NCBI RefSeq assembly: GCF_054482525.1
Contig: NZ_CM137006.1
Direction: 5' to 3' (one strand)
DNA length: 64,000 bases
The position numbers and the translations under genes were made by a program. Under the pieces are notes generated by a model, which worked only from the letters and a program-made list of their open reading frames with translations, had not been told where the DNA came from and searched no databases. Shown here one piece after another: positions 11,476-53,624 of this stretch. Within the stretch, counting starts at the first letter, position 1; the number at the start of each line of letters is the position of its first letter.

Positions 11476-13053
11476 ATGACGGAAAACATTCATAAGCATC
11501 GCATCCTCATTCTGGACTTCGGTTCTCAGTACACTCAACTGGTTGCGCGCCGCGTGCGTGAACTGGGTGTTTACTGCGAACTGTGGGCGTGGGATGTGAC
11601 AGAAGCACAAATTCGTGACTTCAACCCAAGCGGCATTATTCTTTCCGGCGGCCCGGAAAGCACCACCGAAGAAAACAGCCCGCGCGCGCCGCAGTATGTC
11701 TTTGAAGCAGGCGTACCGGTATTCGGCGTTTGCTATGGCATGCAGACCATGGCAATGCAGTTGGGCGGTCACGTTGAAGCCTCTAACGAACGTGAATTTG
11801 GCTACGCGCAGGTTGAAGTCGTAAACGACAGCGCACTGGTTCGCGGTATCGAAGATGCGCTGACCGCAGACGGTAAACCGCTGCTCGATGTCTGGATGAG
11901 CCACGGCGATAAAGTTACCGCTATCCCGTCCGACTTCGTCACCGTAGCCAGCACCGAAAGCTGCCCGTTTGCCATTATGGCTAACGAAGAAAAACGCTTC
12001 TATGGCGTACAGTTCCACCCGGAAGTGACTCACACCCGCCAGGGTATGCGCATGCTGGAGCGTTTTGTGCGTGATATCTGCCAGTGTGAAGCCCTGTGGA
12101 CGCCAGCGAAAATTATCGACGATGCTGTAGCTCGCATCCGCGAGCAGGTAGGCGACGATAAAGTCATCCTCGGCCTCTCTGGTGGTGTGGATTCCTCCGT
12201 AACCGCAATGCTGCTGCACCGCGCTATCGGTAAAAACCTGACTTGCGTATTCGTCGACAACGGCCTGCTGCGTCTCAACGAAGCAGAGCAGGTTCTGGAT
12301 ATGTTTGGCGATCACTTTGGTCTGAACATTGTTCACGTTCCGGCAGAAGCTCGCTTCCTGTCAGCGTTGGCCGGCGAAAACGATCCGGAAGCAAAACGTA
12401 AAATCATCGGGCGCGTTTTCGTTGAAGTATTCGATGAAGAAGCACTGAAACTGGAAGACGTGAAGTGGCTGGCGCAGGGCACTATCTACCCTGACGTTAT
12501 TGAATCTGCCGCATCTGCAACCGGTAAAGCACACGTCATCAAATCTCACCACAACGTGGGCGGCCTGCCGAAAGAGATGAAGATGGGGCTGGTTGAACCG
12601 CTGAAAGAGCTGTTCAAAGACGAAGTGCGTAAGATTGGTCTGGAGCTGGGCCTGCCGTACGACATGCTGTACCGTCACCCGTTCCCGGGACCAGGCCTCG
12701 GCGTTCGTGTACTGGGCGAAGTGAAGAAAGAGTACTGCGACCTGCTGCGCCGTGCTGACGCCATCTTCATTGAAGAACTGCGTAAAGCGGACCTGTACGA
12801 CAAAGTCAGCCAGGCATTCACCGTCTTCCTGCCGGTACGTTCCGTTGGCGTAATGGGCGATGGTCGTAAGTATGACTGGGTTGTCTCTCTGCGTGCTGTC
12901 GAAACCATCGACTTTATGACCGCACACTGGGCGCACCTGCCGTATGACTTCCTCGGTCGCGTTTCCAACCGCATTATCAATGAAGTGAACGGTATTTCCC
13001 GCGTGGTGTATGACATCAGCGGCAAGCCACCAGCGACTATTGAGTGGGAATGA
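11476..13053 (+). CDS. guaA: GMP synthase (glutamine-hydrolysing)
   Basis: 525 aa ORF; GATase domain plus SGGVDSS PP-loop; recalled GuaA. Confidence 0.95.
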
Positions 13054-13099
13054 TTAACAGCTAACTCATAGCAACTCATTTCTATTCAGATATTAACTC

Positions 13100-23812: not shown

Positions 23813-24204
23813 TCACTATTACCAATAAGAAACAGTATCCCAGCGAGCAATATCTTAATGAGCTGATCACCAACATAGAGTTTGCTGCAAGGGCACCAGT
23901 TGAAGTCGTGAGAGCAATGGCAGCAGAGCTACAGAAGCGGCGCGAAGCTGATAGCGCAGAACCAGTTGCTTATATTTTCAAACATCCGGCCGGGAAATTA
24001 TTCTGGGCTTTAACGGATGAAAGTAATAAAGAGCAAGCGGACGTTATTCCTGTTTATGCCGCCCCTCCAGTGCCAGTAGTACCTGAAGAAAAACCAATGC
24101 CTAACCCTCTTAAAATGTACGCGGTCGATGCTGTTGCCGCTATTGCAGAGGTGAGAGGCTGGAATGCCTGCCGCGCCGCCATGCTTCAGGGTAAAGGAGA
24201 GTGA
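23809..24204 (+). CDS. Hypothetical phage protein
   Basis: 131 aa ORF in co-directional operon. Confidence 0.4.
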   Translation: MITITNKKQYPSEQYLNELITNIEFAARAPVEVVRAMAAELQKRREADSAEPVAYIFKHPAGKLFWALTDESNKEQADVIPVYAAPPVPVVPEEKPMPNPLKMYAVDAVAAIAEVRGWNACRAAMLQGKGE

Positions 24205-24205
24205 T

Positions 24206-24415
24206 ATGGCTATTGCCGCAAGTTACACCATGCATCTCTATTGTGACTGCCGCCAGTGTACGGAAGGTGTATATCCAGTGCCAGACTTCGGTGAGTATAT
24301 CGGTACGTCATGGTCTGGTTGTGCAAAAGAGGCCCGTAAAGACGGGTGGCGAATAAGCGCCGACAAAACACGTGCTTTTGCGCCCGGGCATAAAGTTTTG
24401 AGGATTAACACATGA
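24206..24415 (+). CDS. Hypothetical small Cys-rich protein
   Basis: 69 aa from internal ATG of ORF 24164-24415. Confidence 0.3.
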   Translation: MAIAASYTMHLYCDCRQCTEGVYPVPDFGEYIGTSWSGCAKEARKDGWRISADKTRAFAPGHKVLRINT

Positions 24416-25215
24416 CCACTATTACCAAAGAACGTATTGAATTGTTCATTAAAAATCCGCTTGAAAACGGGCTTACTCGTGGCGAACAAATGGAACTGGC
24501 ACGAATTGCACTGGCATCACTGGAACGCGAACAGATTCGCCACGAGCATGCCAAATGGTCTGACTCCACATTTGGCTGCGTTGGCCCCATTGGTCCACTG
24601 AAACACCTCTCAAAAGAGGCACTGGAAGCCGCAGCCGAACCAGACGATCTTAGCGAGTGGGCTGATATGCAGTTTCTGTTGTGGGATGCACAGCGCCGTG
24701 CTGGCATCAGCGATGCTGAAATTAACGTTGCTATGGAAGATAAATTGAAGATCAACATGGAGCGCCAGTGGCCTGAGCCAAAAGATGGTGAGCCTCGCTT
24801 GCACATTAAAGAACCCGGCAACTCTCCGGTAATTCCGGATGGTTTATCCACGGTATGCGCTGAGGCTTATCAGGTTGTAGGAGTTATGGCAGATGCGCTT
24901 GGTGTATTCGGTGATGCAGCAGTACAGAACGTTCTGGATAACCTGTCACAGCAAAAACTTGTTCACAGAGATGTGCTGCCGTTCTCGCTTCCGGCAACTC
25001 CGGATGGTTGGATAAGCTGTAGTGATCTAATGCCGGAAGACACCAAAATGTTACTGGCATTTAGTCAAGGTGAAATCGTGGCAGCATATTGGAACTGGGT
25101 TGTAAATCCAATTGATTACAAAAAATATAGAGCTTTCACGTATTTATCAGGAAATATCTTGGATGACGTAACCCACTGGATGCCGCTACCAGAACCGCCG
25201 CAGGAGGTGAAGTGA
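24412..25215 (+). CDS. Phage protein with C-terminal DUF551-like domain
   Basis: 267 aa; C-terminal W-rich segment ending HWMPLPEPP. Confidence 0.5.
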   Translation: MTTITKERIELFIKNPLENGLTRGEQMELARIALASLEREQIRHEHAKWSDSTFGCVGPIGPLKHLSKEALEAAAEPDDLSEWADMQFLLWDAQRRAGISDAEINVAMEDKLKINMERQWPEPKDGEPRLHIKEPGNSPVIPDGLSTVCAEAYQVVGVMADALGVFGDAAVQNVLDNLSQQKLVHRDVLPFSLPATPDGWISCSDLMPEDTKMLLAFSQGEIVAAYWNWVVNPIDYKKYRAFTYLSGNILDDVTHWMPLPEPPQEVK

Positions 25216-25565
25216 TGGACTATTCACAGTTAAGTGATTTTGAAATTAACAGAATGGTAGGAGACATAATTTTTAAAGGCCTTTGGGCGTGTAAACCGGA
25301 AACATCAGGGAATAACACCAACAAATGGTATTACGGAAATACTGATACAACTTTTGAGCCATTAAACCCTTTACCTGACTACTGCAATAATCCATCGGAT
25401 GCATGGCCTATTATTGTTGATAATAAAATCAGTCTAACCTGCCACCAATCTCGCGGTGAGTGGTCAGCTGTTTTTAATGTCGAGAACATTTGCTTTCATG
25501 CGAATAATCCACTCCGAGCCGCCATGATTGTATTTCTCATGATGCAGGAAAATCAGAATGGCTAA
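25212..25565 (+). CDS. Hypothetical phage protein (NinX/DUF2591-like?)
   Basis: 117 aa ORF; weak recall only. Confidence 0.35.
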   Translation: MMDYSQLSDFEINRMVGDIIFKGLWACKPETSGNNTNKWYYGNTDTTFEPLNPLPDYCNNPSDAWPIIVDNKISLTCHQSRGEWSAVFNVENICFHANNPLRAAMIVFLMMQENQNG

Positions 25566-25896
25566 ATCAGCAGCAGAGCGCAAAGCCGCTCAGAGAGCCA
25601 GACAAGCTGCATCTGGTGTGCGTAAGCTGGAGATTGTGCTTGATGCTCAGGAAATTGAAATGCTTGAGCGTAACTGTGCCGCACGTCGCCCCGGGCGTGC
25701 GCCTTACGAATTTGGTGAGTATATAGCGTTACTGATCCGCCAGGATGATGCACGCGTGCGCGGGCGTATAAAATCGATCAGTAGAAAACGTTGCGGTAAG
25801 TGCGGCGAGAGAGTTCCCGTTAATTCATGCCCGTGTAATGGTGACTCGCAATGCTGGGTGACTAAAGGCTGGTATGAAACGAAATTAATAGTGTGA
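25558..25896 (+). CDS. Hypothetical protein with C-terminal zinc-ribbon; candidate late-gene regulator
   Basis: 112 aa; CGKCG...CPCNGDSQC; last gene before late operon. Confidence 0.3.
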   Translation: MAKSAAERKAAQRARQAASGVRKLEIVLDAQEIEMLERNCAARRPGRAPYEFGEYIALLIRQDDARVRGRIKSISRKRCGKCGERVPVNSCPCNGDSQCWVTKGWYETKLIV

Positions 25897-25982
25897 CATG
25901 TCACGAGTAGATTATGCATGATGAATTTGACGGGTTTTGAATACTGCCGCCAACTATGGCGGCTTTATTTTGCATGGTACTA

Positions 25983-26015
25983 TTACCACAACGGTAACTA
26001 TTACCACGGTGGTTA
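25983..26015. promoter_or_regulatory. Tandem TTACC-N5-GGTAA sites abutting terminase small subunit start
   Basis: TTACCacaacGGTAA (25983-25997) and TTACCacggtGGTtA (26001-26015). Confidence 0.45.
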
Positions 26016-26611
26016 TGATGCCTGCTGAACCTAAAACCTATAAACGCAAATCAACGCAATTTAAGCCACTAACAGCAATGCAGGAGGCTTATTGCCAGTC
26101 ATACATCAAAACGCCTGAAAACCAGACTCAGGCAGCGATTAACGCAGGATTCTCCCCAAATACAGCGGCAGTTAAAGCCAGTGTCATGATGCGCGATGAA
26201 CGCATTCAGAAACGGATTGCCGAGTTGATGGAGGAGCGCAACAAACGAATGCGCGTCAGTGCTGATTACGTTCTCATGCGCCTGGTGGAGATCGACCAGA
26301 TGGACGTTATCGACATCCTCAACGACGATGGGAGCCTTAAACCAATCCGTGAGTGGCCGAAAATCTGGCGCACTACGCTTAGTGGCTTTGATCTGTCATC
26401 GACCATCATGAACATGAACGAGGATTCGATAGAGACAATCCTCAAAAAAATTAAATGGCCTGACAAGGTGAAGAACCTTGAGCTGATTGGTAAGCATGTT
26501 GATGTCAATGCGTTCAAAGAACGTCTGGATGTTAATGTGAATGTGACAATTGCTGATCGCATAGCGGCAGCCAGGAAGAGACTGAAAGAACGTCAGGATG
26601 GCAATCAGTGA
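26015..26611 (+). CDS. Terminase small subunit
   Basis: Start placed at MMPAEPK within ORF 25937-26611; HTH-like N-terminal region; precedes large subunit with 4-nt overlap. Confidence 0.6.
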   Translation: MMPAEPKTYKRKSTQFKPLTAMQEAYCQSYIKTPENQTQAAINAGFSPNTAAVKASVMMRDERIQKRIAELMEERNKRMRVSADYVLMRLVEIDQMDVIDILNDDGSLKPIREWPKIWRTTLSGFDLSSTIMNMNEDSIETILKKIKWPDKVKNLELIGKHVDVNAFKERLDVNVNVTIADRIAAARKRLKERQDGNQ

Positions 26612-28083
26612 CAGATACAGCGTTATCTCCTGAAGAGCAGTTAATTGAGGATATTGCAGGGTTCACTCACGATCCGCTTGGCTATGCCCTCTATGCGTTC
26701 CCGTGGGGGGAAGAGGGGACTGAACTGGCACATGCTACCGGCCCACGTCAGTGGCAGGCCGATGCGTTCCGAGAGATACGTGATCACCTGCAGAATCCAG
26801 AGACGCGTTATCAGCCGCTTATGCTGGCACGTGCTTCTGGTCACGGTATTGGTAAATCCGCATTCATCTCAATGCTCATCAACTGGGGCATGTCCACTTG
26901 CGAGGATTGTAAGGTCGTGGTGACCGCCAACACCGACAACCAGCTACGAACGAAGACCTGGCCGGAAATTATCAAGTGGTCGAACCTTGCTATCACGAAA
27001 GACTGGTTTACCTGTACCGCTACCGCGATGTACAGCAATGACCCTGGGCACGACAAGCGGTGGCGGGCTGACGCAATACCCTGGTCTGAGCACAACACTG
27101 AGGCATTCGCCGGACTACACAACGAGCGCAAACGCATCATCGTGGTGTTTGATGAAGCGTCGAACATTGCGGATCTGGTGTGGGAAGTTGCCGAGGGTGC
27201 GCTTACGGACGAAGACACTGAGATTATTTGGGTGGCGTTCGGAAACCCTACACGTAACACCGGGCGTTTTCGCGAATGTTTCCGCAAATATAAACACCGC
27301 TGGAAAACTGCGCAGATTGACAGCCGGACGGTGGAAGGCACTAACAAACAGCAGTTGCAGAAATGGGTTGATGACTACGGGGAAGACAGCGACTTCGTTA
27401 AAATCCGTGTGCGTGGCATATTCCCTGATGCATCTGAATTGCAGTTTATCCCTACCGGTCTTACTGACGAGGCAATGAAACGGGTGGTAACCGCTGCGCA
27501 GGTTGCACATGCTCCGGTGATAATCGGCGTTGACCCGGCATACTCCGGCGTTGATGACGCTGTGATATACCTGCGGCAGGGGCTACACAGTAAGGTGCTG
27601 TGGACTGGCAACAAGACTACCGACGATCTGATTATGGCGAAGCGTATCGCTGACTTTGAAGACCAGTATCAGGCTGACGCGGTGTTCATCGACTTCGGTT
27701 ACGGAACCGGTTTGAAGTCAATCGGTGACGGCTGGGGTCGTACATGGCAACTTGTTCCGTTCGGTGGCGCGTCTACTGACCCGCAGATGCTCAACAAGCG
27801 TGGGGAGATGTTCAACTCATGCAAGACATGGCTGAGGCTCGGTGGCATGCTGGATGACCAGGAAACAGCGGACGACCTGTCGGCAGCAGAGTACAAAGTT
27901 CGAGTGGACGGTAAAATCGTTATCGAACCGAAGGAAGATATCAAAGAGCGACTTGGGCGTTCTCCTGGTAAAGGCGATGCGCTACTGCTGACGTTTGCGT
28001 TCCCTGTGTCGAAGCGTCTGCGAATTCCCGGTCAGCAGAACCAGCAAGGCAAGGCCATCACAGATTACGATCCCTATGCTTAA
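26608..28083 (+). CDS. Terminase large subunit
   Basis: 491 aa; Walker A-like GHGIGKS; ATPase-nuclease architecture. Confidence 0.8.
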   Translation: MTDTALSPEEQLIEDIAGFTHDPLGYALYAFPWGEEGTELAHATGPRQWQADAFREIRDHLQNPETRYQPLMLARASGHGIGKSAFISMLINWGMSTCEDCKVVVTANTDNQLRTKTWPEIIKWSNLAITKDWFTCTATAMYSNDPGHDKRWRADAIPWSEHNTEAFAGLHNERKRIIVVFDEASNIADLVWEVAEGALTDEDTEIIWVAFGNPTRNTGRFRECFRKYKHRWKTAQIDSRTVEGTNKQQLQKWVDDYGEDSDFVKIRVRGIFPDASELQFIPTGLTDEAMKRVVTAAQVAHAPVIIGVDPAYSGVDDAVIYLRQGLHSKVLWTGNKTTDDLIMAKRIADFEDQYQADAVFIDFGYGTGLKSIGDGWGRTWQLVPFGGASTDPQMLNKRGEMFNSCKTWLRLGGMLDDQETADDLSAAEYKVRVDGKIVIEPKEDIKERLGRSPGKGDALLLTFAFPVSKRLRIPGQQNQQGKAITDYDPYA

Positions 28084-28173
28084 TCCGCTGGTGGGGATAA
28101 TGTCGTTGATATCCTCTGGTGAGGATAAAACAAAGCCAGCTCATAGGCTGGCTGTTTGTGACATGTCACAGAG

Positions 28174-28596
28174 CTAGAAAATAATTTCATCAAATGCAGC
28201 ATTTATTGCCTTTGCTTCGCTAATGGCGCCTTGTTTATCGACAATAGCTTTTTTACCAAGCACCTCGGCAAGGCACTGTAGCTTCATGTTGTATAAGTGT
28301 TCGCTCATGTAATCATTATCACTTTTTGCTTTAGCGCAAACAGAGCGAGAAATATCAAACACATCGCCTTTTTCCATTTCAGAACGTTGTGCTGTTATCC
28401 AGTCATGGAACGTAACGCTAGTACCATGGTCTTCGCTAAGAGTTAACCCGGTCAGTCCCTCACTCTGAATTACTTCGTAATGCATTTCATTACCAGCAAA
28501 AACGCCATAAAAAACGCAGTCTTCAGCCTGAACGATACGAGAATATTTTAATGGCCATTCATTTAGATACTTAGCCAACATATCAATTGTTTTCAT
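28174..28596 (-). CDS. Hypothetical protein (moron, opposite strand inside late region)
   Basis: 140 aa ORF antisense to the late operon, downstream of tRNA-Arg on same strand. Confidence 0.45.
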   Translation of the reverse strand: MKTIDMLAKYLNEWPLKYSRIVQAEDCVFYGVFAGNEMHYEVIQSEGLTGLTLSEDHGTSVTFHDWITAQRSEMEKGDVFDISRSVCAKAKSDNDYMSEHLYNMKLQCLAEVLGKKAIVDKQGAISEAKAINAAFDEIIF

Positions 28597-28794
28597 GATC
28601 TCACCTTAAAAAAATGCCCGGCGAACCGGGCGAACTGGAAGCAATGAGTTATGCCTTCCGTGGCTGTACGGGTTTACAGCATGAAGTCATCGCAATGGCG
28701 TCCTGCTGTAAAAAGGGCGGTGATAGTCCTTCAAGGGAAACCATCACCGCCAAGCACCTGGAACTTCTGGCATCACGGTCCTTAGGCGTGATTC

Positions 28795-28871
28795 TGGCGC
28801 GGCATGCAGGATTCGAACCTGCGACCAACCGCTTAGAAGGCGGTTGCTCTGTCCAACTGAGCTAATGCCAC
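28795..28871 (-). tRNA. tRNA-Arg (anticodon UCU), phage-encoded
   Basis: Hand-folded cloverleaf: 7-bp acceptor stem, D-arm GCTC/GAGC, anticodon loop CTTCTAA, T-arm GCAGG-TTCGAAT-CCTGC, 3' CCA encoded. Confidence 0.85.
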
Positions 28872-29193
28872 AACGCTGAGAGCACTTAGCCTGTTAAGGC
28901 GCCACACTTTGTCGCGGCTCCATAAATGCTCTCATCGTTGTACCCTCGTCTCTTCCGAGGTGTCACACCGAATCGCCGGGATGGTGAATCCCCGTGCGCG
29001 GAATAAAACCGCTCGACTTGCACATTCCGGCTACCTGGTTCGTTTGCCCGAGCAAGGGAGGGTGCCCCTTAAACGTATCCAGACCGCTATCGGCGCATGT
29101 GCCATACGCCGTACTGCTCAAAATAAAAGCTCACCCCACCTGTTCAATTTAACGACAAGCCAGTCAGATTAGTAACTGGAGTGAATTCTTTGG

Positions 29194-29208
29194 TTACCTG
29201 AAAGGTAA
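29194..29208. promoter_or_regulatory. TTACC-N5-GGTAA motif upstream of portal region
   Basis: TTACCtgaaaGGTAA. Confidence 0.45.
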
Positions 29209-29298
29209 TAATTCGTGCGTTAAATGTCAACTGTCTACGATAAATAAATCATATGTGGTTAAATTGGTAATAATTTAATTGCGTACGGAGTCATTGAT

Positions 29299-29505
29299 AT
29301 GTGCATGGGTAGCTCACCATCAGTGCCTGCAACACCAGAAGTTCAGGCAGCACCACAGGAGCAGGATGCCGCCGTTGTTGATGCCCGCGACGAAGAAACT
29401 CGTCGCCGTCGCGCTGCTGCTGGTCGTAGTTCTACGCTGCTTACCGGTTCTCAGGGCGACACATCAACCGCTAATACCAGCGGTAAAACGCTGCTTGGTC
29501 AGTAA
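29299..29505 (+). CDS. Small hypothetical protein upstream of portal
   Basis: 68 aa ORF with RBS GGAG; Ala/Arg-rich. Confidence 0.35.
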   Translation: MCMGSSPSVPATPEVQAAPQEQDAAVVDARDEETRRRRAAAGRSSTLLTGSQGDTSTANTSGKTLLGQ

Positions 29506-29519
29506 CCGGAGTCATTGAA

Positions 29520-31199
29520 ATGGCGGAAACAACTAAAGAGCGATTGAACAAACAGTTCGCACAACTTGAAAGCGAGCGTCAGTCGTTCGAGCCGCACTGG
29601 CGCGAGTTGAGTGATTACATCAACCCGCGTGGTTCCCGCTTTCTGACTTCTGAGGTCAACCGTAACGATCGGCGCAATACACGCATTATTGATTCGACCG
29701 GGACTATGGCGGCGCGCACTCTCGCCAGCGGCATGATGTCAGGCATCACAAGCCCCGCGCGTCCGTGGTTTCGCCTGGCTACGCCAGATCCTGAAATGAT
29801 GGATTATGGCCCTGTTAAGTTGTGGCTTGAGGCAGTTCAGAACCGCATGAACGATATGTTCAATAAGTCGAATCTCTACCAGTCTCTTCCGCAGTTATAC
29901 GGAAGCCTCGGCACATACAGCACTGGTGCAATGGCAGTGCTGGAGGATGACGAGGACATCATTCGCACAATGCCATTCCCGATAGGCAGTTACTACCTGG
30001 CTAACTCACCTCGTGGCAGTGTTGACACCTGTTTTCGCAAGTTCTCTATGACTGTTCGTCAGCTTGTTCAGGAGTTCGGGCTAAATAACGTCAGCGAATC
30101 CGTAAAAAGCATGTGGGAAAGCGGCACCTACGAGAAGTGGATCGAAGTGATGCATTCGGTTTACCCGAACATTGACCGCGATACATCGAAGCTGGATAGC
30201 AAGAACAAGCCATTCAAATCGGTTTATTACGAGGTTGGTGGAGATAACGACAAGTTGTTGCGTGAGTCCGGATTCGATGAGTTTCCAATTATGGCTCCGC
30301 GCTGGGAAGTTAACGGCGAAGATGTTTATGGATCATCATGCCCGGGTATGCTGGCGCTTGGACCTGTTAAGGCATTGCAGCTTCTCCAGAAGCGCAAGTC
30401 GCAGTTGATTGATAAAGCCACCAATCCGCCGATGGTTGCTCCGACTTCCCTCAAGAATCAGCGCGCCTCCCTTCTTCCTGGCGACATCACGTATATCGAT
30501 CAGATTACTGGTCAGGATGGCTTCAGGCCTGCTTATCTGGTTAACCCCAGTACAGCAGATTTGGTGGCAGACATTCAGGACACTCGTCAAATCATTAACA
30601 GCGCCTACTTTGTCGATCTGTTCATGATGTTGCAGAACATCAATACCCGCTCGATGCCTGTTGAAGCGGTGATCGAAATGAAAGAAGAAAAACTTCTGAT
30701 GTTGGGGCCGGTTCTGGAGCGTCTGAACGACGAATGTCTTAATCCTCTCATTGACCGCGCTTTCTCGATGATGGTGCGCAAAAACATGCTGCCGCCACCG
30801 CCTGACGCGATGGAAGGCATGCCCCTGAAGGTCGAATACATTTCCGTCATGGCTCAGGCGCAGAAGTCTATCGGCCTGTCCAGTCTGGCGTCCACGGTTA
30901 ACTTCATTGGTCAACTTGCGCAAGCGAAACCAGAAGCTCTCGACAAACTCAACGTTGATCAGGCGATCGATGCATTCGCTGATATGTCCGGAGTGTCTCC
31001 AACCGTCATTGTTCCGCAGGAACAGGTTGAGCAGGCTCGCCAGCAACGGGCACAGCAACAACAGCAGCAACAAATGATGGCGATGGGGATGGCGGCGGCA
31101 CAGGGGGCCAAGACGCTAAGCGAAGCTAAAACTTCGGATCCGAGTGTGTTGTCAGCTATGGCGAATGCAGTTAGTGGTCAGGGTGGGCAATCACAATGA
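29520..31199 (+). CDS. Portal protein
   Basis: 559 aa; position after terminase; C-terminal Gln-rich tail. Confidence 0.7.
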   Translation: MAETTKERLNKQFAQLESERQSFEPHWRELSDYINPRGSRFLTSEVNRNDRRNTRIIDSTGTMAARTLASGMMSGITSPARPWFRLATPDPEMMDYGPVKLWLEAVQNRMNDMFNKSNLYQSLPQLYGSLGTYSTGAMAVLEDDEDIIRTMPFPIGSYYLANSPRGSVDTCFRKFSMTVRQLVQEFGLNNVSESVKSMWESGTYEKWIEVMHSVYPNIDRDTSKLDSKNKPFKSVYYEVGGDNDKLLRESGFDEFPIMAPRWEVNGEDVYGSSCPGMLALGPVKALQLLQKRKSQLIDKATNPPMVAPTSLKNQRASLLPGDITYIDQITGQDGFRPAYLVNPSTADLVADIQDTRQIINSAYFVDLFMMLQNINTRSMPVEAVIEMKEEKLLMLGPVLERLNDECLNPLIDRAFSMMVRKNMLPPPPDAMEGMPLKVEYISVMAQAQKSIGLSSLASTVNFIGQLAQAKPEALDKLNVDQAIDAFADMSGVSPTVIVPQEQVEQARQQRAQQQQQQQMMAMGMAAAQGAKTLSEAKTSDPSVLSAMANAVSGQGGQSQ

Positions 31200-31492
31200 C
31201 AGATTACGAAGACGATCAACTGAAAGAAGAAAACGCCCGTAAGCAACGTGACATGGCGCAGCGTGAAATTGATGACATTCGCTTTGTCATGAGCAGTGAA
31301 CAGGGGCGTCGCGTTGTCTGGTCGGTGCTGGAGAAAGGCCGTGTGTTTTCCGCTATCTCACCGATGGACGCTATGGCAATGGCATTTAATGAGGGGCAAC
31401 GCAATCTGGCGCTGGAACTGTTTCAGCGCGTTATGGCGCATTGCCCTGAACAGTATTTGAAGATGGCCAAAGAGGCCAGTGAACAGGAGTGA
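31196..31492 (+). CDS. Hypothetical head-assembly protein
   Basis: 98 aa ORF overlapping portal stop. Confidence 0.4.
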   Translation: MTDYEDDQLKEENARKQRDMAQREIDDIRFVMSSEQGRRVVWSVLEKGRVFSAISPMDAMAMAFNEGQRNLALELFQRVMAHCPEQYLKMAKEASEQE

Positions 31493-32190
31493 TCATGAAT
31501 TTATTTGAGCGTTTGCTGTATCGCCGTCTTTGCAATGAGCAACCAGTCGATGGTGGAGCAGCTCCGGCTGCGTCAGAACCGTCAGCGCCTGCAGGTGATA
31601 ACCATGCTCCAGTTGGTGATCCATCACAACCGGAAGGTGATAAGTCACAACCTGTTGCTGATGGCGATAAACCTGCTGATGACAAAAATCCTGAAAACGA
31701 TAAGCAGGATGAAAAAAAGGACGGCGATAAACCAGAGGGTGCGCCTGAGAAGTACGAGTTTCAGGCTGCCGAAGGCGTAGAGCTGGATACAGAAGCGTTG
31801 AAGGAATTCGAGCCGGTGGCGCGAGAACTAAACCTGACCAACGAGCAAGCGCAAAAGCTGGTTGATGCTTATCCGAAGATTCTGGCAGGTGTTCAGCAGC
31901 GCCAGGTAGAAGCCTGGCAGAAAACAACCGAGCAGTGGGCTGCGGATGTAAAAGCTGACAAAGAAATCGGTGGCGACAAGTTGATTTCTAACCTTAGCGC
32001 CGCACAGCGTGCGCTTGACCAGTTCGGGACACCTGAACTCAAAGAATATCTGAACACCACCGGGCTGGGTAATCACCCTGATCTGGTCAAAACGTTCGTG
32101 AAAATCGGAAAGGCGATGTCTGAAGATGGCATGGTCACCGGTGGTAATGAAGGCCAGCGTAGTGCGGCCGAAGTGCTCTATGGCAAATAA
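31489..32190 (+). CDS. Scaffolding protein
   Basis: 233 aa, acidic, low complexity, immediately upstream of capsid gene. Confidence 0.55.
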   Translation: MIMNLFERLLYRRLCNEQPVDGGAAPAASEPSAPAGDNHAPVGDPSQPEGDKSQPVADGDKPADDKNPENDKQDEKKDGDKPEGAPEKYEFQAAEGVELDTEALKEFEPVARELNLTNEQAQKLVDAYPKILAGVQQRQVEAWQKTTEQWAADVKADKEIGGDKLISNLSAAQRALDQFGTPELKEYLNTTGLGNHPDLVKTFVKIGKAMSEDGMVTGGNEGQRSAAEVLYGK

Positions 32191-32198
32191 GAGAGGAA

Positions 32199-33191
32199 AT
32201 GACAATGGCTGTTAAAGGCTTAACTGCGCTAACGCTGGCTGACTGGGGTAAGCGCGTCGATCCAAACGGGAAAGTCGATAAGATTATCGAGCTTCTCGGT
32301 CAAACTAACCCGATCCTTCAGGATATGCCTTTTGTCGAAGGGAACCTTCCTACCGGACACCGAACCACTATTCGTTCTGGTTTACCTTCAGCTACCTGGC
32401 GTTTGCTGAACTATGGCGTACAGCCAAGCAAATCAACCACAGTGCAGGTAACCGATTCCGTTGGCATGCTGGAAACCTATGCGGAAGTCGATAAGTCACT
32501 GGCTGATCTGAACGGCAATACCGCCGAATTCCGCCTGTCTGAAGACCGCGCATTTATTGAAGCGATGAATCAGCAGATGGCGCAGACGCTGTTTTATGGT
32601 GATTCCAGCGTTAACCCTCAGCAGTTTATGGGACTGTCCTCCCGCTATTCCAGCCTGTCTGCGGGTAATGCTCAGAATATCATTGATGCTGGTGGCACGG
32701 GTACAGATAACACCTCAATCTGGTTAGTGGTGTGGGGCGAAAACACCGTGCATGGCATCTTCCCGAAAGGGCAGAAGGCTGGCATCCAGATGGAAGATAA
32801 AGGCCAGGTGACACTGGAAGATGCTAATGGCGGCAAGTACGAAGGCTATCGCACCCATTACAAATGGGATAACGGACTTGCTCTGCGTGACTGGCGTTAT
32901 GTTGTTCGCATTGCAAACATCGATGTCAGCAATCTTTCAGAACCATCCTCTGCCGCAAATATTGCGAAGTTGATGGTTAAAGCACTACATCGCATTCCAA
33001 ACCGTGGCATGGGCCGCCCGGTGTTCTACATGAACCGCACTGTAGGCCAGGCTCTTGATCTGCAGTCTCTGGAGAAAACATCTCTGGCTATCAGCGTAAA
33101 AGAGACAGAAGGCGAGTGGTGGACTTCATTCCGTGGTGTACCAATCCGTGAAACTGATGCGCTTCTGGAAACAGAAGCCCGCGTGGTGTAA
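32199..33191 (+). CDS. Major capsid protein
   Basis: 330 aa; position after scaffold; followed by hairpin. Confidence 0.65.
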   Translation: MTMAVKGLTALTLADWGKRVDPNGKVDKIIELLGQTNPILQDMPFVEGNLPTGHRTTIRSGLPSATWRLLNYGVQPSKSTTVQVTDSVGMLETYAEVDKSLADLNGNTAEFRLSEDRAFIEAMNQQMAQTLFYGDSSVNPQQFMGLSSRYSSLSAGNAQNIIDAGGTGTDNTSIWLVVWGENTVHGIFPKGQKAGIQMEDKGQVTLEDANGGKYEGYRTHYKWDNGLALRDWRYVVRIANIDVSNLSEPSSAANIAKLMVKALHRIPNRGMGRPVFYMNRTVGQALDLQSLEKTSLAISVKETEGEWWTSFRGVPIRETDALLETEARVV

Positions 33192-33242
33192 CGCCTGTTA
33201 TTAACCTGTGGGTCGTAACAGACCCACTAATGGAGAAAGAAG

Positions 33243-33680
33243 ATGATCACCGACAAACTGTTGATGTTCTCCGAAGCTCAGGCGGTTACGAATACCGCGG
33301 CTTCTACTGACGTAATCGATCTCGGTCCAATTGACGGAAAACGTCGTGATATCGGCGTGGGTTACCCGCTTGAGTTTTGGGTGCTGGTTAACGCAGCCGC
33401 CGCAGCAAGCGGTGATGCAACTGTAAACATCCAGTTGCAGACGAGTGAGAATAACACCTCATGGACCACTATTTATGATAGTGGCGCACTGGTAAAGACC
33501 GCCCTGACAGCAGGTAAACGAGTTGTTTCTGCAAAGGTGCCTGCCGGTGTTCAGCGATATCTGCGTGTTAACTACTCCGTCGCAACTGGCCCACTAACGG
33601 CTGGCGAATTCACTGCTGGTATCAGTCTTGATGTTGATGCCAATACGCCGTATCCGATCCGCTCAAAAGTAACTGGTTAA
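33243..33680 (+). CDS. Virion-associated hypothetical protein
   Basis: 145 aa ORF in late operon. Confidence 0.4.
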   Translation: MITDKLLMFSEAQAVTNTAASTDVIDLGPIDGKRRDIGVGYPLEFWVLVNAAAAASGDATVNIQLQTSENNTSWTTIYDSGALVKTALTAGKRVVSAKVPAGVQRYLRVNYSVATGPLTAGEFTAGISLDVDANTPYPIRSKVTG

Positions 33681-33681
33681 G

Positions 33682-34026
33682 GTGATATCGATGTCAGGTG
33701 AGAAACCAAGATACCGCGTTCTGCGCCTCTCTCATATCCATAACACTCTGTGGCCGGAGGGGGCAGAAATCGAATACGAAGGTGAGCCTGGTAGCGCACT
33801 GGAACCTGTTAACGATGCAGCCAGACAGGCAAAAGCAAAAGTTGCAGGAAAGGTGTCAATGGCAGCAACCAGCACCAAAATCATCAACGATGTGTCAGAT
33901 GATGGTGAACTGGATAAGCTCCGTGAAGAGTACGAATTGCTCTTTAACGAGAAGCCACACCATAACGCCAAAGCTGAAACGCTCCGCGAGAAGATCGCAG
34001 ATAAGCGTAAAGAACTGGGCGTGTAA
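33682..34026 (+). CDS. Virion-associated hypothetical protein
   Basis: 114 aa ORF. Confidence 0.4.
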   Translation: MISMSGEKPRYRVLRLSHIHNTLWPEGAEIEYEGEPGSALEPVNDAARQAKAKVAGKVSMAATSTKIINDVSDDGELDKLREEYELLFNEKPHHNAKAETLREKIADKRKELGV

Positions 34027-48367: not shown

Positions 48368-51142
48368 ATGACGGTCTCAACCGAAGTTGACCACAACGAA
48401 TACACAGGTAACGGCGTTACGACATCATTTCCGTATACCTTCCGCATTTTCAAAAAAACAGACCTGGTTGTTCAGGTGTCTGACCTGAACGGTAACGTAA
48501 CAGAATTGGTTCTGGATACCGGTTATACGGTAACTGGGGCGGGCACTTATAGTGGCGGTTCTGTTGTTCTTCCGTCGCCGCTTGCTGCTGGCTGGAAAAT
48601 CACGATAGAGCGTGTGCTTGATGTGGTGCAGGAGACTGATCTTCGCAATCAGGGAAAATTTTTCCCCGAAGTTCATGAGGATGCATTTGACTACCTGACG
48701 ATGCTGATCCAGCGATGTTTTGGGTGGTTCAGACGTGCATTGATGAAACCATCTTTGCTTGCAAAATATTACGATGCAAAGCAAAACAGAATTTCTAACC
48801 TTGCAGATCCATCACTTGAGCAGGATGCTGTAAATAATCGCTCAATGCGTAATTATGTCGATGCTGCAATCGCCGGGGTTGTTGGTGGTTTTGGTTGGTT
48901 TATTCAGTATGGTTTTGGGGCAGTATATCGAACGTTCCAGGATAAGATGCGGGATATCGTCAATGTTCGCGATTTTGGTGCAAAAGGGGATGGCATTACT
49001 GACGATACAGACGCAATAACAAATGCCATCATTTACTGCGCATCTAACGGAAAACGCCTGAAGTGGGATTCTGGTGTGTATTTGATTAGCCGCATAAAAT
49101 GCGGCGGGGATAATTATAACTATGACTGGGTAGCTGATGGCAAGGTTGTCTTAAAGTCAACCGCAAAAGAGCCTCTTGGTCCAAACTGGATTGATGATTA
49201 TTTCATAAGACTCGAAGGTGGAGATGCCACGCCAATTGACTATAATTCAACAATAAATCCTGGTGACACATCAATATCAATTAACTCAGCATATTCTGTT
49301 GATGCAGGCGATATAATTATGATTCATGGTAATCGCTTAATTCAGACAGATAATAGAGGACAGGCTTGTGAAGGTGAAATGCATGTTGTTACTGCTTTTG
49401 ATAATGCAACAAAAAAAGCGGAGATATCAGGTGCATTTTATTTTTTCTACTCTGCGAGCAATGATTACTCAACGACCGTAACAGCATCTGTATCCGGAGG
49501 TGAATTCTCATTTGGTAATGATGCAACATTAACAAAACAATACAATCAGGTAAAAGTAACAGGTGTCACCGGAGCTAACGCCGGAATATCAAGATACATA
49601 ACTCATTGGGATTACGACACTAAAACAGCAAAATTTGAATATGCTCAGGGACCATTCCCGTTTAAACCATCTGTTGGAGACGTGTTTAAAATCACAAGAA
49701 AGGCAAATATATATAAAAGAAAACCATGCTACGGCAGAATTGTCGGTGATTTCAATTTTGAAAGACCTGTCACGCAGAACGCATCTCCTGGTGATTTGGG
49801 GTTCCGTGGTCTTGTGATAGATGGCGCTGTTGATATGCATATAGAAGGAATAAAACTAATCGGCTTTTCAGAAACTGGAATTTTTCTTGAGTCATGCTAC
49901 AGAACGAAAATAATAGAGCCATATATTGAATACTCAAACCGTGCATATGATTTAACAAACGGCACTGGTTATGGTGTTGAAATATACAATAGCAGCTATT
50001 GCACAGTCGTGGATATGATAGCATTTGCTTGCAGGAGGGGGCTTGATGTAAGCGGGACTCAAATGGTATCACTGTATAATAACATTATAAATCCAACGAT
50101 GATGGGTGGTGGAACTGCATATGATGGAGTTAAATTTTTCCCTGATGGCGATACAAGAAATTCATGTTGCGGTGGACACGGCCCATCATACGAAACAACT
50201 TTTACAGGCGGCAATTCAGTCAATTTGTATTATGCTGGTGTAATACGCGGATTAAATGAAGTGTATGATGGAATGAACGCCAGGGGATTTAGCGGACCGG
50301 CTCCTTTTTTTGTAAGATATAGTGGTGGTGGGTTCACGATTCAGAACTGTAATTATATTGATGGTTTTACTGAGATGTCTTTGCCATACAACTTGAGGTA
50401 CAAACCTGTGAATGCAACTCAACGTAATCACAGACCTTTTGTTTTTATTGAAACAACTCTGGCACAGACAGACAGAAACTCTTACTATAAAGAACTTCCT
50501 GTTGTTATTAAGAATAATACCGCAAGGACTGTTCTCAAGGGCTTTTTACGTTTTGAGGTTAATGATGGCCTCACCCCTCTAATCCAAAATATTTATTTTG
50601 GTGGTAATTTATGCATGGCGAACCCAGAAACATCAGACTCTGTATCAGGGCAAACAGAGGCAGTAATGGTTTATTCATCAGTTCCTGGTGCAATAATTGT
50701 TCGAAATTTCCATGATCTTGGCGGTAACAGAATTGTTCCTGTTGGAGCAGGATACAGATACTGCGGTATGTTCAACACGCCAGATGGAATAGCAGGAACA
50801 ATAGTTCAACCAGACGGAAAATATCTAATAACACTTGAAGCCAACAAATCTACAAGTATCCTTGTTGGTGGATATGTCCCATGTGTTCGCCTTGATATGC
50901 ACGACATACTTGATATTCATGGGGTAATTGCAGTTGGTGTTCTTATTCATCGTGGTGAGGCAATTGATTTTTCTCCTTTAAAAGAAATTAATAAGCAAAA
51001 TGTTGTATTGAAAACCGGAGTTCTTTCAGATAATGATGGTGATGAAAATAACTTAAATATTTCGTTTGACTTTGCAACCATATATTTAAGCAACAAGATG
51101 CCAAATAAGATTCAACTATCTATTGAAGTATCAGGAGTGTAA
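48368..51142 (+). CDS. Tailspike / receptor-binding protein
   Basis: 924 aa; N-terminal virion-attachment-like region, large repetitive beta-rich body; position typical. Confidence 0.6.
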   Translation: MTVSTEVDHNEYTGNGVTTSFPYTFRIFKKTDLVVQVSDLNGNVTELVLDTGYTVTGAGTYSGGSVVLPSPLAAGWKITIERVLDVVQETDLRNQGKFFPEVHEDAFDYLTMLIQRCFGWFRRALMKPSLLAKYYDAKQNRISNLADPSLEQDAVNNRSMRNYVDAAIAGVVGGFGWFIQYGFGAVYRTFQDKMRDIVNVRDFGAKGDGITDDTDAITNAIIYCASNGKRLKWDSGVYLISRIKCGGDNYNYDWVADGKVVLKSTAKEPLGPNWIDDYFIRLEGGDATPIDYNSTINPGDTSISINSAYSVDAGDIIMIHGNRLIQTDNRGQACEGEMHVVTAFDNATKKAEISGAFYFFYSASNDYSTTVTASVSGGEFSFGNDATLTKQYNQVKVTGVTGANAGISRYITHWDYDTKTAKFEYAQGPFPFKPSVGDVFKITRKANIYKRKPCYGRIVGDFNFERPVTQNASPGDLGFRGLVIDGAVDMHIEGIKLIGFSETGIFLESCYRTKIIEPYIEYSNRAYDLTNGTGYGVEIYNSSYCTVVDMIAFACRRGLDVSGTQMVSLYNNIINPTMMGGGTAYDGVKFFPDGDTRNSCCGGHGPSYETTFTGGNSVNLYYAGVIRGLNEVYDGMNARGFSGPAPFFVRYSGGGFTIQNCNYIDGFTEMSLPYNLRYKPVNATQRNHRPFVFIETTLAQTDRNSYYKELPVVIKNNTARTVLKGFLRFEVNDGLTPLIQNIYFGGNLCMANPETSDSVSGQTEAVMVYSSVPGAIIVRNFHDLGGNRIVPVGAGYRYCGMFNTPDGIAGTIVQPDGKYLITLEANKSTSILVGGYVPCVRLDMHDILDIHGVIAVGVLIHRGEAIDFSPLKEINKQNVVLKTGVLSDNDGDENNLNISFDFATIYLSNKMPNKIQLSIEVSGV

Positions 51143-53496: not shown

Positions 53497-53624
53497 TTTC
53501 CGGTGACGGTATATAAAACGGTACGGCGAAAATCAGGTTGCAGAAAGTTGTTATCAGTCAATTGGTTATGTGTGTCGTAAATAATTGAGTGGGAATAATT
53601 TGACCCTGCACTATGAATGAACAA

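Follow-up and report, generated by a model that had tools for sequence, protein, structure and literature searches.

A predicted structured RNA and a tRNA-Arg(UCU) gene in a conserved leftward unit between the terminase and portal genes of phiV10/epsilon15-like phages

Introduction

Why does about 1.2 kb of DNA lie between the large terminase (terL) and portal genes of a prophage, and what is encoded there? The question arises in a 64,000-nt stretch of RefSeq assembly GCF_054482525.1 (contig NZ_CM137006.1), here called the window, with positions counted from its first letter. An earlier note, made from the letters alone, had taken this gap for an unusual insertion parting two normally adjacent genes, and had listed in it a tRNA-Arg(UCU) gene, a 140-aa open reading frame (ORF) and about 400 bp of GC-rich sequence. 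We find instead that the gap amounts to a leftward transcription unit, conserved among phiV10/epsilon15-like phages. Our overall reading is that this unit makes an early structured RNA together with a codon-supplying tRNA, which we consider on balance probable.

The gap is an old and constant feature of these phages

The window contains a phiV10/epsilon15-like (Uetakevirus) prophage at 13039-53600 (40.6 kb), delimited by BLAST against phiV10 and by the att core; Escherichia phage HEMP4 matches the segment at 99.9% identity, and phiV10 and other Uetakeviruses are close kin. Each of the eight Uetakeviruses compared (phiV10, epsilon15, SPN9TCW, PAS61, Tyrion, BUCT711, and two Klebsiella prophages) has the same gap, which is therefore not a recent insertion, contrary to the earlier view. 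Among these relatives the gap itself is constant, and the slot occupied here by the 140-aa ORF varies in content. In these phages the gap is bordered by the large terminase gene on one side and, on the other, by a small conserved gene that precedes the portal gene. In the window this gene, which had been missed before, encodes 68 aa (29299..29505, plus strand; phrog_831) and is homologous to epsilon15 gp3; it opens the rightward structural operon and stands between the gap and the portal gene. Read leftward, the unit consists of an operator and promoter, the structured RNA, tRNA-Arg, two intrinsic terminators, and a variable cargo ORF, as we call the 140-aa frame.

Anatomy and covariation of the structured RNA

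The GC-rich segment (28872-29298) had been described as lacking a convincing ORF, and this much holds: the ~430 bp that separate the tRNA from the following plus-strand gene contain no credible ORF. The segment is not mere spacer: it appears to combine a structured RNA with a divergent promoter/operator region. The G+C fraction is 0.55-0.58 over 28700-29100 and 0.37 over 29100-29299. Judged from aligned sequences, the GC-rich stretch is the best-conserved part of the locus and a predicted folded RNA of ~250-320 nt. A leader comes first, then a core of 175 nt with five helices and one or more pseudoknots, and last a long closing stem directly next to the tRNA.

All parts of the RNA lie on the minus strand. 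The 5' leader (29125..29190) corresponds to a long hairpin of the M type (AAAGCGCACUCC...GGAGUGCGCUU) in degenerate form, as indicated by alignment A1 (see below) and by comparison with variants of the closing stem, M2; this hairpin of the leader is intact in Klebsiella and Enterobacter relatives. The core (28942..29116), defined by pair counts in alignment A2 and by a covariance-model score of 147.6 bits, includes helix H1 (29091-29111), with an invariant GGCAC loop, and H2 (29034-29083), whose variable tip usually contains YCCUU(G), followed by the invariant junction GUAGCCGGAAUGUGCAAG (29017-29034). H3 (28998-29012) is a variable hairpin, H4 (28978-28993) has a YUCACCA loop from which CACC is predicted to form a pseudoknot with a downstream GGUG, and H5 (28944-28960) has the form CCUCG-GAAGAGA-CGAGG. 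The closing stem M2 (28871..28940; CAACG-A-UGAGAGCAUU / AGUGCUCUC-AG-CGUUG), placed by covariation and coordinates, encloses a variable insert, and its last G is G1 of the tRNA.

Alignment A1, of nine loci on the minus strand, shows long invariant blocks between variable, length-polymorphic inserts, with compensatory changes that can be seen by eye. Alignment A2 comprises 35 representatives less than 93% identical to one another. Paired cells make up 95.4% in A2, versus 26-47% once the partners are slid by 1-3 columns, and 12 of the 30 pairs have compensatory changes; none of 500 shuffles equalled the data in the share of paired cells, in the number of compensatory pairs or cells, or in the covariation score. 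The compensatory changes support five helices of the RNA, and in the closing stem M2 such changes are found at 8 of 15 pairs. Frequent G-U pairs, which would be C-A on the other strand, show that the sense strand is the tRNA strand. No reading frame in the GC-rich segment is consistently open across homologues, and its variable columns have no three-base periodicity (33/50, 35/51, and 30/52). A covariance model built from A2 (R1) finds one copy per phage.

Distribution, losses, and annotation status

One invariant block, used as query against viral contigs, matched at least 120 loci, and BLAST against phage genomes located the element in 88 records, which include Uetakeviruses, lambdoid phages (mEp460, cdtI, 2H10, Stx2c, and Stx2a phages), and the group of P1, P7, D6, SJ46, and RCS47. 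The fold is nearly invariant in phages of Escherichia, Salmonella, Klebsiella, Enterobacter, Citrobacter, and Kosakonia, and the RNA has been exchanged between three unrelated phage lineages. When one genome per species was scanned, 23 contigs carried it, all from Enterobacterales apart from two short contigs of metagenome-assembled genomes that are probably contamination. Among complete E. coli genomes 1835 of 5426 (~34%) carry it, at 2468 sites in all. Of these copies 554 are plasmid-borne, most of them probably on P1-like plasmids.

A scan of 27500-30000 against Rfam 15, on both strands and at E<=10, which covered the GC-rich segment, gave only the tRNA and chance-level matches elsewhere, and a literature search returned no paper with the invariant strings of the RNA and none describing such an element. 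Of 30 E. coli matches listed, 29 have no annotation and one lies over a "hypothetical protein." The only features over the RNA in phage records are likewise antisense "hypothetical protein" calls. Coding sequences of this kind, antisense to the tRNA or RNA, are found in phiV10 (L001, 2672-2923, plus strand; L numbers are our locus labels), mEp460 (L130, 2443-2811, minus), BUCT554 (L167, 1639-1890, minus), and L135 (2323-2613, minus), and are most likely spurious. The element thus fills a stretch that looked empty; it is absent from Rfam and nearly unannotated in the records inspected, and it is common in E. coli and present in P1.

Two losses were seen. Epsilon15 lacks the RNA core and the tRNA and keeps only H1 and the 3' half of T1, a terminator-like hairpin described below (2641-2726 and 2655-2690 of L002); the deletion fuses the tips of H2 and T1, which both hold the string UUCCCUUGAUGCU. 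The element is also absent from the CPS-53 remnant of K-12, a loss that may explain its omission from K-12-centred RNA catalogues. Upstream of yfdP in this remnant (L162, 5400-5530), repeated iteron-type CAGATTTTGACGGGT-like units stand where the RNA would be, from which it follows that the K-12 remnant is rearranged here.

Promoter, operator, and early-operon context

Ahead of the RNA lies an operator palindrome, TTACC-N5-GGTAA, at 29194..29208, which was recognized by its enrichment (17 sites in the window against 1.3 expected, or 13-fold, nearly all inside the prophage) and which the epsilon15 record annotates as a repressor-binding site. It flanks the repressor gene, and at 29194-29208 it overlaps or adjoins candidate -10 hexamers of a leftward promoter. 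A promoter scan and A1 together point to a promoter-like site at 29208..29237 (minus strand; TAGACA-18-AATTAT, with an invariant TTGACA also inside). The adjacent AT-rich control region (29240..29298) is invariant and common to all relatives, corresponds to the IHF and repressor sites of epsilon15, and presumably contains the promoter from which the rightward gp3-portal operon is read. The 17 palindromes span 13189-51822 (for example 18211, 18273, 18985, 21272, 25983, 29194, 46816, 47868, and 48249) and stand at intergenic control points, some of them ahead of the small terminase gene and others near the tail-fibre/antirepressor region. Given this spread over the control points of the prophage, one DNA-binding protein may govern early and late units directly.

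The other two lineages place the RNA in comparable surroundings. In the lambdoid locus L016 it starts just past a cI-type repressor gene and its terminator, and because the dyads of the RNA promoter (TTGCA-N6-GCAA) recur between cI and cro, this promoter can be assigned as PL/OL. The RefSeq context of lambdoid copies is a LexA-family repressor, the element, and then yfdP, yfdQ, and yfdR. In P1 the RNA is part of the C1-controlled ban operon, starting ~15 nt past tRNA-Ile and stopping ~100 nt short of ban; the core there, between trnI and ban (L129, 2497-2677; 137 bits), is unannotated. In three unrelated phage groups, then, the RNA is predicted to belong to a repressor-controlled early transcript.

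The tRNA and the modules that follow it

ARAGORN reports a single tRNA in the whole window, a tRNA-Arg with anticodon tct at 28795..28871 (minus strand), and the Rfam tRNA model (RF00005) scores 69.4 bits at the same position against a gathering threshold of 29, so that the earlier call of a genuine tRNA-Arg(UCU) is upheld. Relative to K-12 argU, the D arm, the anticodon loop CUUCUAA, the T arm, and CCA are identical, and the acceptor stem, anticodon stem, and variable loop differ. A20 and C35 are among the identity elements of arginyl-tRNA synthetase, and the arginine features common to the phage tRNA and argU are A20 in the D loop, C35, and the encoded CCA. Genes for an argU-like tRNA-Arg(UCU) are found in lambdoid and Stx phages, and this tRNA is itself ordinary, being already annotated in several GenBank records of related phages. 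The suggestion that it compensates for codon usage fits the counts: AGA is used 6.7 times per 1000 codons in prophage ORFs versus 1.2 in host-flank ORFs (5.7 times), and AGG 3.4 versus 0.8 (4 times). The counts support codon supplementation, which suffices to explain the tRNA. The heaviest rare-codon load in the prophage is that of the tail-fibre/tailspike gene (48368-51142, plus strand), with 16 AGA and 5 AGG among 42 Arg codons.

As in other phages with codon-supplementing tRNA genes, an intact argU-like cloverleaf with encoded CCA is found in a phage that over-uses AGA and AGG. The difference is that the tRNA is here embedded in a longer conserved RNA, and that most relatives of this RNA have a tRNA-like hairpin in its place. 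Among the matches listed, a tRNA follows the RNA in 26 of 108 distinct viral sequences; at most other loci the position is taken by a hairpin preceded by GUGGUGAAU or GUGGUAAUC, a layout corresponding to a tRNA acceptor strand plus D arm. The stems of these tRNA-like hairpins covary (GCGCA/UGCGC, GCCCA/UGGGC, CCGCG/CGCGG, GCACA/UGUGC), and at lambdoid loci the module closes with ...CCACCACAAC.

Directly 3' of the tRNA in the window is a conserved hairpin (GAAUCACGCC..GGACCGUGAU; 28772..28794, minus strand, from A1 and coordinates). It is followed on the same strand by T1 (28710..28751; GGCGGUGAUGG..UUCCCUUGA..CUAUCACCGCC then CUUUUU), by a further hairpin, UUUACAGCA...UGCUGUAAA, whose loop holds the invariant block CGCCAUUGCGAUGAC (28673..28712, from invariant columns in A1), and by T2 (28608..28631; GCCCGG-TTCG-CCGGGC plus T7). 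T1 and T2, both located with a terminator scan, each have the G+C-rich hairpin and U run of an intrinsic terminator. Uetakevirus and lambdoid loci share the conserved T1 sequence (GGCGGU....ACCGCCCUUUUUACA), the stem of which shows compensatory variation. T2 lies right against the ribosome-binding site of the cargo ORF, is kept in most aligned Uetakeviruses, and is an annotated terminator in epsilon15.

Two viral contigs, L064 and L017, have three to four tandem hairpins ~300-550 nt 3' of the core, with loops GGAAAGACC or GGAAGUAGAC, each after UGAC. These loops resemble the H5 loop, GGAAGAGAC, and the array could be a multivalent binding site for some factor.

What the RNA may do

Under our overall reading the unit would stay off during lysogeny and be transcribed once the prophage is induced or a cell is infected, and the tRNA would then supply AGA/AGG decoding for the over-using, AGA/AGG-rich late genes. 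RNase P processing of the tRNA would free the upstream RNA with a precise 3' end, and in P1 the tRNA-Ile immediately upstream would fix the 5' end likewise. The freed molecule would then persist as a stable early RNA and act in trans, its target being a factor of the host or of the phage. We favor a trans-acting, processed RNA because in each lineage a tRNA or its mimic marks one end (on the 3' side a tRNA here and a mimic in lambdoids, on the 5' side a tRNA in P1), and such precise ends are typical of processed stable RNAs; for this step in trans our confidence is tentative and falls somewhat short of an even chance.

Several points weigh against this account. RNase P cleavage is predicted from geometry alone, the RNA is known here from sequence, and we can name no target in trans. 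The viability of epsilon15 without the core and tRNA implies that the RNA is dispensable. The next annotated gene is co-oriented at every locus with gene context examined, which fits a leader acting in cis equally well or better. As for the fold, the junction-loop pseudoknot GCACAU:AUGUGC is invariant, so covariation neither supports nor refutes it; the additional divergent copies that a BLAST search brought in had all invariant bases unchanged and left this pairing without covariation. The H4 pseudoknot changes from CACC:GGUG to AACC:GGUU in just three related sequences, possibly in one evolutionary event.

The same co-orientation is one of several arguments for a cis-acting processive antiterminator like HK022 put, in which the nascent RNA would bind RNA polymerase and allow read-through of T1/T2 (T1 in the lambdoid PL operon). 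The lambdoid RNA is found where putL or nutL would be, with PL and its OL-type operators immediately before it and the first ORF only after it; a strong T1 hairpin with its U run stands between the RNA and the first gene at both lambdoid and Uetakevirus loci; and the abutment of T2 on the cargo ribosome-binding site leaves little space for a promoter of the cargo gene's own. The put RNA itself lies just downstream of PL, works without protein factors, and is ~70 nt long with two stem-loops (PMC9378689). The core described here is, by contrast, 175 nt long and pseudoknotted, occurs once per phage with no putR-like second copy, and R1 finds nothing in the HK022 immunity region (24000-34000). Nor does a cis antiterminator need exact abutment on a tRNA, or a mere obstacle such as T1 need its sequence conserved within the module; epsilon15 retains T2 and the cargo gene without the RNA, and by eye P1 has no hairpin plus U run between the core and ban. 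We regard a put-like role as rather unlikely, though it is the main rival and the second likeliest role for the RNA. A leader that senses a ligand or factor and sets T1/T2 read-through, as a riboswitch or attenuator does, would draw on the same downstream terminators, and the many invariant junction nucleotides and pseudoknots are aptamer-like; the GUUG of the closing stem can, moreover, pair alternatively with CAAC after the tRNA-like module at lambdoid loci. Known expression platforms, however, do not lie ~130-200 nt away with a complete tRNA between, P1 copies have no apparent downstream terminator, and Rfam has no riboswitch model that matches even with the cutoff relaxed to E<=10, which makes such a sensor very improbable.

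A simpler role, that the RNA is a leader protecting the tRNA-Arg or helping it to mature, accords with the direct fusion seen in the window and with the adjoining tRNA-Ile of P1. It is hard to reconcile with the minority of viral loci (the 26 of 108 listed) at which a tRNA follows, with the upstream rather than downstream tRNA of P1, or with a conservation that exceeds the needs of a leader, and we hold it to be highly unlikely. The earlier note had proposed that the cargo ORF is an anti-defence gene and that the tRNA counters a tRNA-targeting defence. The variable gene slot, the probable expression of the unit at induction, and the departures of the phage acceptor and anticodon stems from argU are in keeping with this idea, but the cargo protein matches no defence or anti-defence family and has no informative fold, and codon usage alone accounts for the tRNA. 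Since the anticodon loop is that of argU, escape from an anticodon nuclease is not obvious and has no specific support from the sequence; we view this proposal as improbable. That the conserved segment is instead an opposite-strand protein gene, or a site acting as DNA, is suggested by antisense "hypothetical proteins" annotated in mEp460, BUCT554, BUCT709, and one Klebsiella prophage. We reject an antisense ORF over the RNA: no frame is open across homologues, codon periodicity is lacking, and protein similarity is confined to a 26-aa stretch of conserved nucleotides. The compensatory and G-U pairs are also strand-specific, and the segment lies between promoter and terminators on the tRNA strand, so that this last alternative is scarcely credible.

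Some narrower candidates were also set aside. A lambda-type nut site, in which a conserved single-stranded boxA precedes a boxB hairpin, was rejected, as the boxA-like UGCUCUC lies inside the covarying closing stem and changes, for example, to UGAGCUA. A phi29-type packaging RNA, an RNA that the portal/terminase motor requires, was rejected because in lambdoid phages and P1 the RNA is in early operons far from packaging genes, and because epsilon15 does without it. T-box-like sensing of a tRNA was considered on account of the H5 loop, which contains AGA, and an invariant GGCG; most copies, however, have no tRNA-Arg, and the P1 partner is tRNA-Ile.

Comparison with known RNAs

HK022 put resembles the RNA in position: both putL and putR are, like it, just downstream of a repressor-controlled early promoter, ahead of terminators and early genes, and without an associated protein gene. 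The likeness ends there; put suppresses termination in cis by binding the zinc-binding domain of the RNA polymerase beta-prime subunit, and antitermination is no more than a possible role of the present RNA. Put occurs twice per genome, whereas this RNA occurs once, adds a closing stem to its larger core, and is fused to a tRNA or tRNA-like hairpin; the search of HK022 with R1 revealed no kinship in sequence or structure. GOLLD and ROOL are alike in being large, complex-folded, phage-associated RNAs beside tRNAs. GOLLD is larger still than ROOL, and both are found mostly in Firmicutes and other non-enterobacterial lineages. GOLLD has been reported to occur often near tRNA genes and in prophages, and ROOL averages 581 nt (PMC5737381). 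The RNA described here is smaller, is restricted to phages of Enterobacterales, and matches neither Rfam model. It is a member of neither the put nor the GOLLD/ROOL family, and there is a real chance that it represents a new functional class.

Some RNAs are matured by tRNA-processing enzymes, among them the P1 c4 RNA, which is cut by RNase P, and small RNAs from the spacers of tRNA operons. The exact abutment of the present RNA on a tRNA, where an RNase P cut would make its 3' end, and the start of the P1 copy ~15 nt past a tRNA 3' end are reminiscent of these; the RNA is nevertheless much larger than c4 RNA and unrelated to it, and its processing is a prediction. The broadest interpretation is of a previously undescribed class of large pseudoknotted RNAs, made at lytic onset by unrelated temperate phages of Enterobacteriaceae, P1 included, which would confer protein-free terminator resistance on polymerase or neutralize a host factor, with tRNAs and their mimics as processing signals. 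On present comparisons we would give this interpretation close to an even chance. Were the RNA an antiterminator that needs no protein, HK022 put would no longer be the sole example, and early-left expression in N-less lambdoid prophages would be explained; as a trans-acting early RNA it would open a new class of phage-host interaction.

The accessory gene and the prophage ends

The 140-aa cargo ORF (28174..28596, minus strand) is, as proposed, a real gene. Its ribosome-binding site, AAGGTGAG, lies 5 nt ahead of the ATG, and residues 1-140 of 140 match phrog_4846 (E=1.8e-88), a family without known function. We found 80 homologues, all from Enterobacteriaceae and all "hypothetical," with full-length identity down to ~40%. 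The description of the ORF as having no recognized family is thus superseded by the phrog_4846 match, and it stands in so far as searches of Pfam, NCBIfam, PADLOC, and PDB sequences gave no match for the protein; in PADLOC, which covers defence systems and not anti-defence genes, nothing matched at E<=1. AlphaFold gave a confident model (pLDDT 81), for which a fold search returned no informative structural neighbor.

The same slot holds unrelated genes in other Uetakeviruses (phrog_322, phrog_11227, phrog_872, and phrog_4780, depending on the phage), and this difference in content between related phages marks the cargo ORF as an accessory gene, in agreement with the earlier suggestion. It is an ordinary occupant of an exchangeable slot, one of many interchangeable cargo genes. 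The phrog_872 gene is given as DUF2829 in its source record, and the Tyrion gene resembles the cargo protein in its C-terminal 50 residues only. We rejected phiV10p03 as a relative of the 140-aa protein, to which it is unrelated. Beyond the cargo ORF, hairpin T3 (28127..28153; AGCCAGC-N6-GCTGGCT, with A/T runs on either side), found with the terminator scan, is likely the terminator that ends it; in phiV10 the same feature is annotated as a plus-strand terminator after terL.

The prophage itself is bounded by direct repeats of the att core ATTGAGTGGGAATGATT at 13039-13055 and 53584-53600, with one mismatch in the second copy. The same att core has been reported at the 3' end of guaA in a paper on phage ZX5 (PMC9782041).

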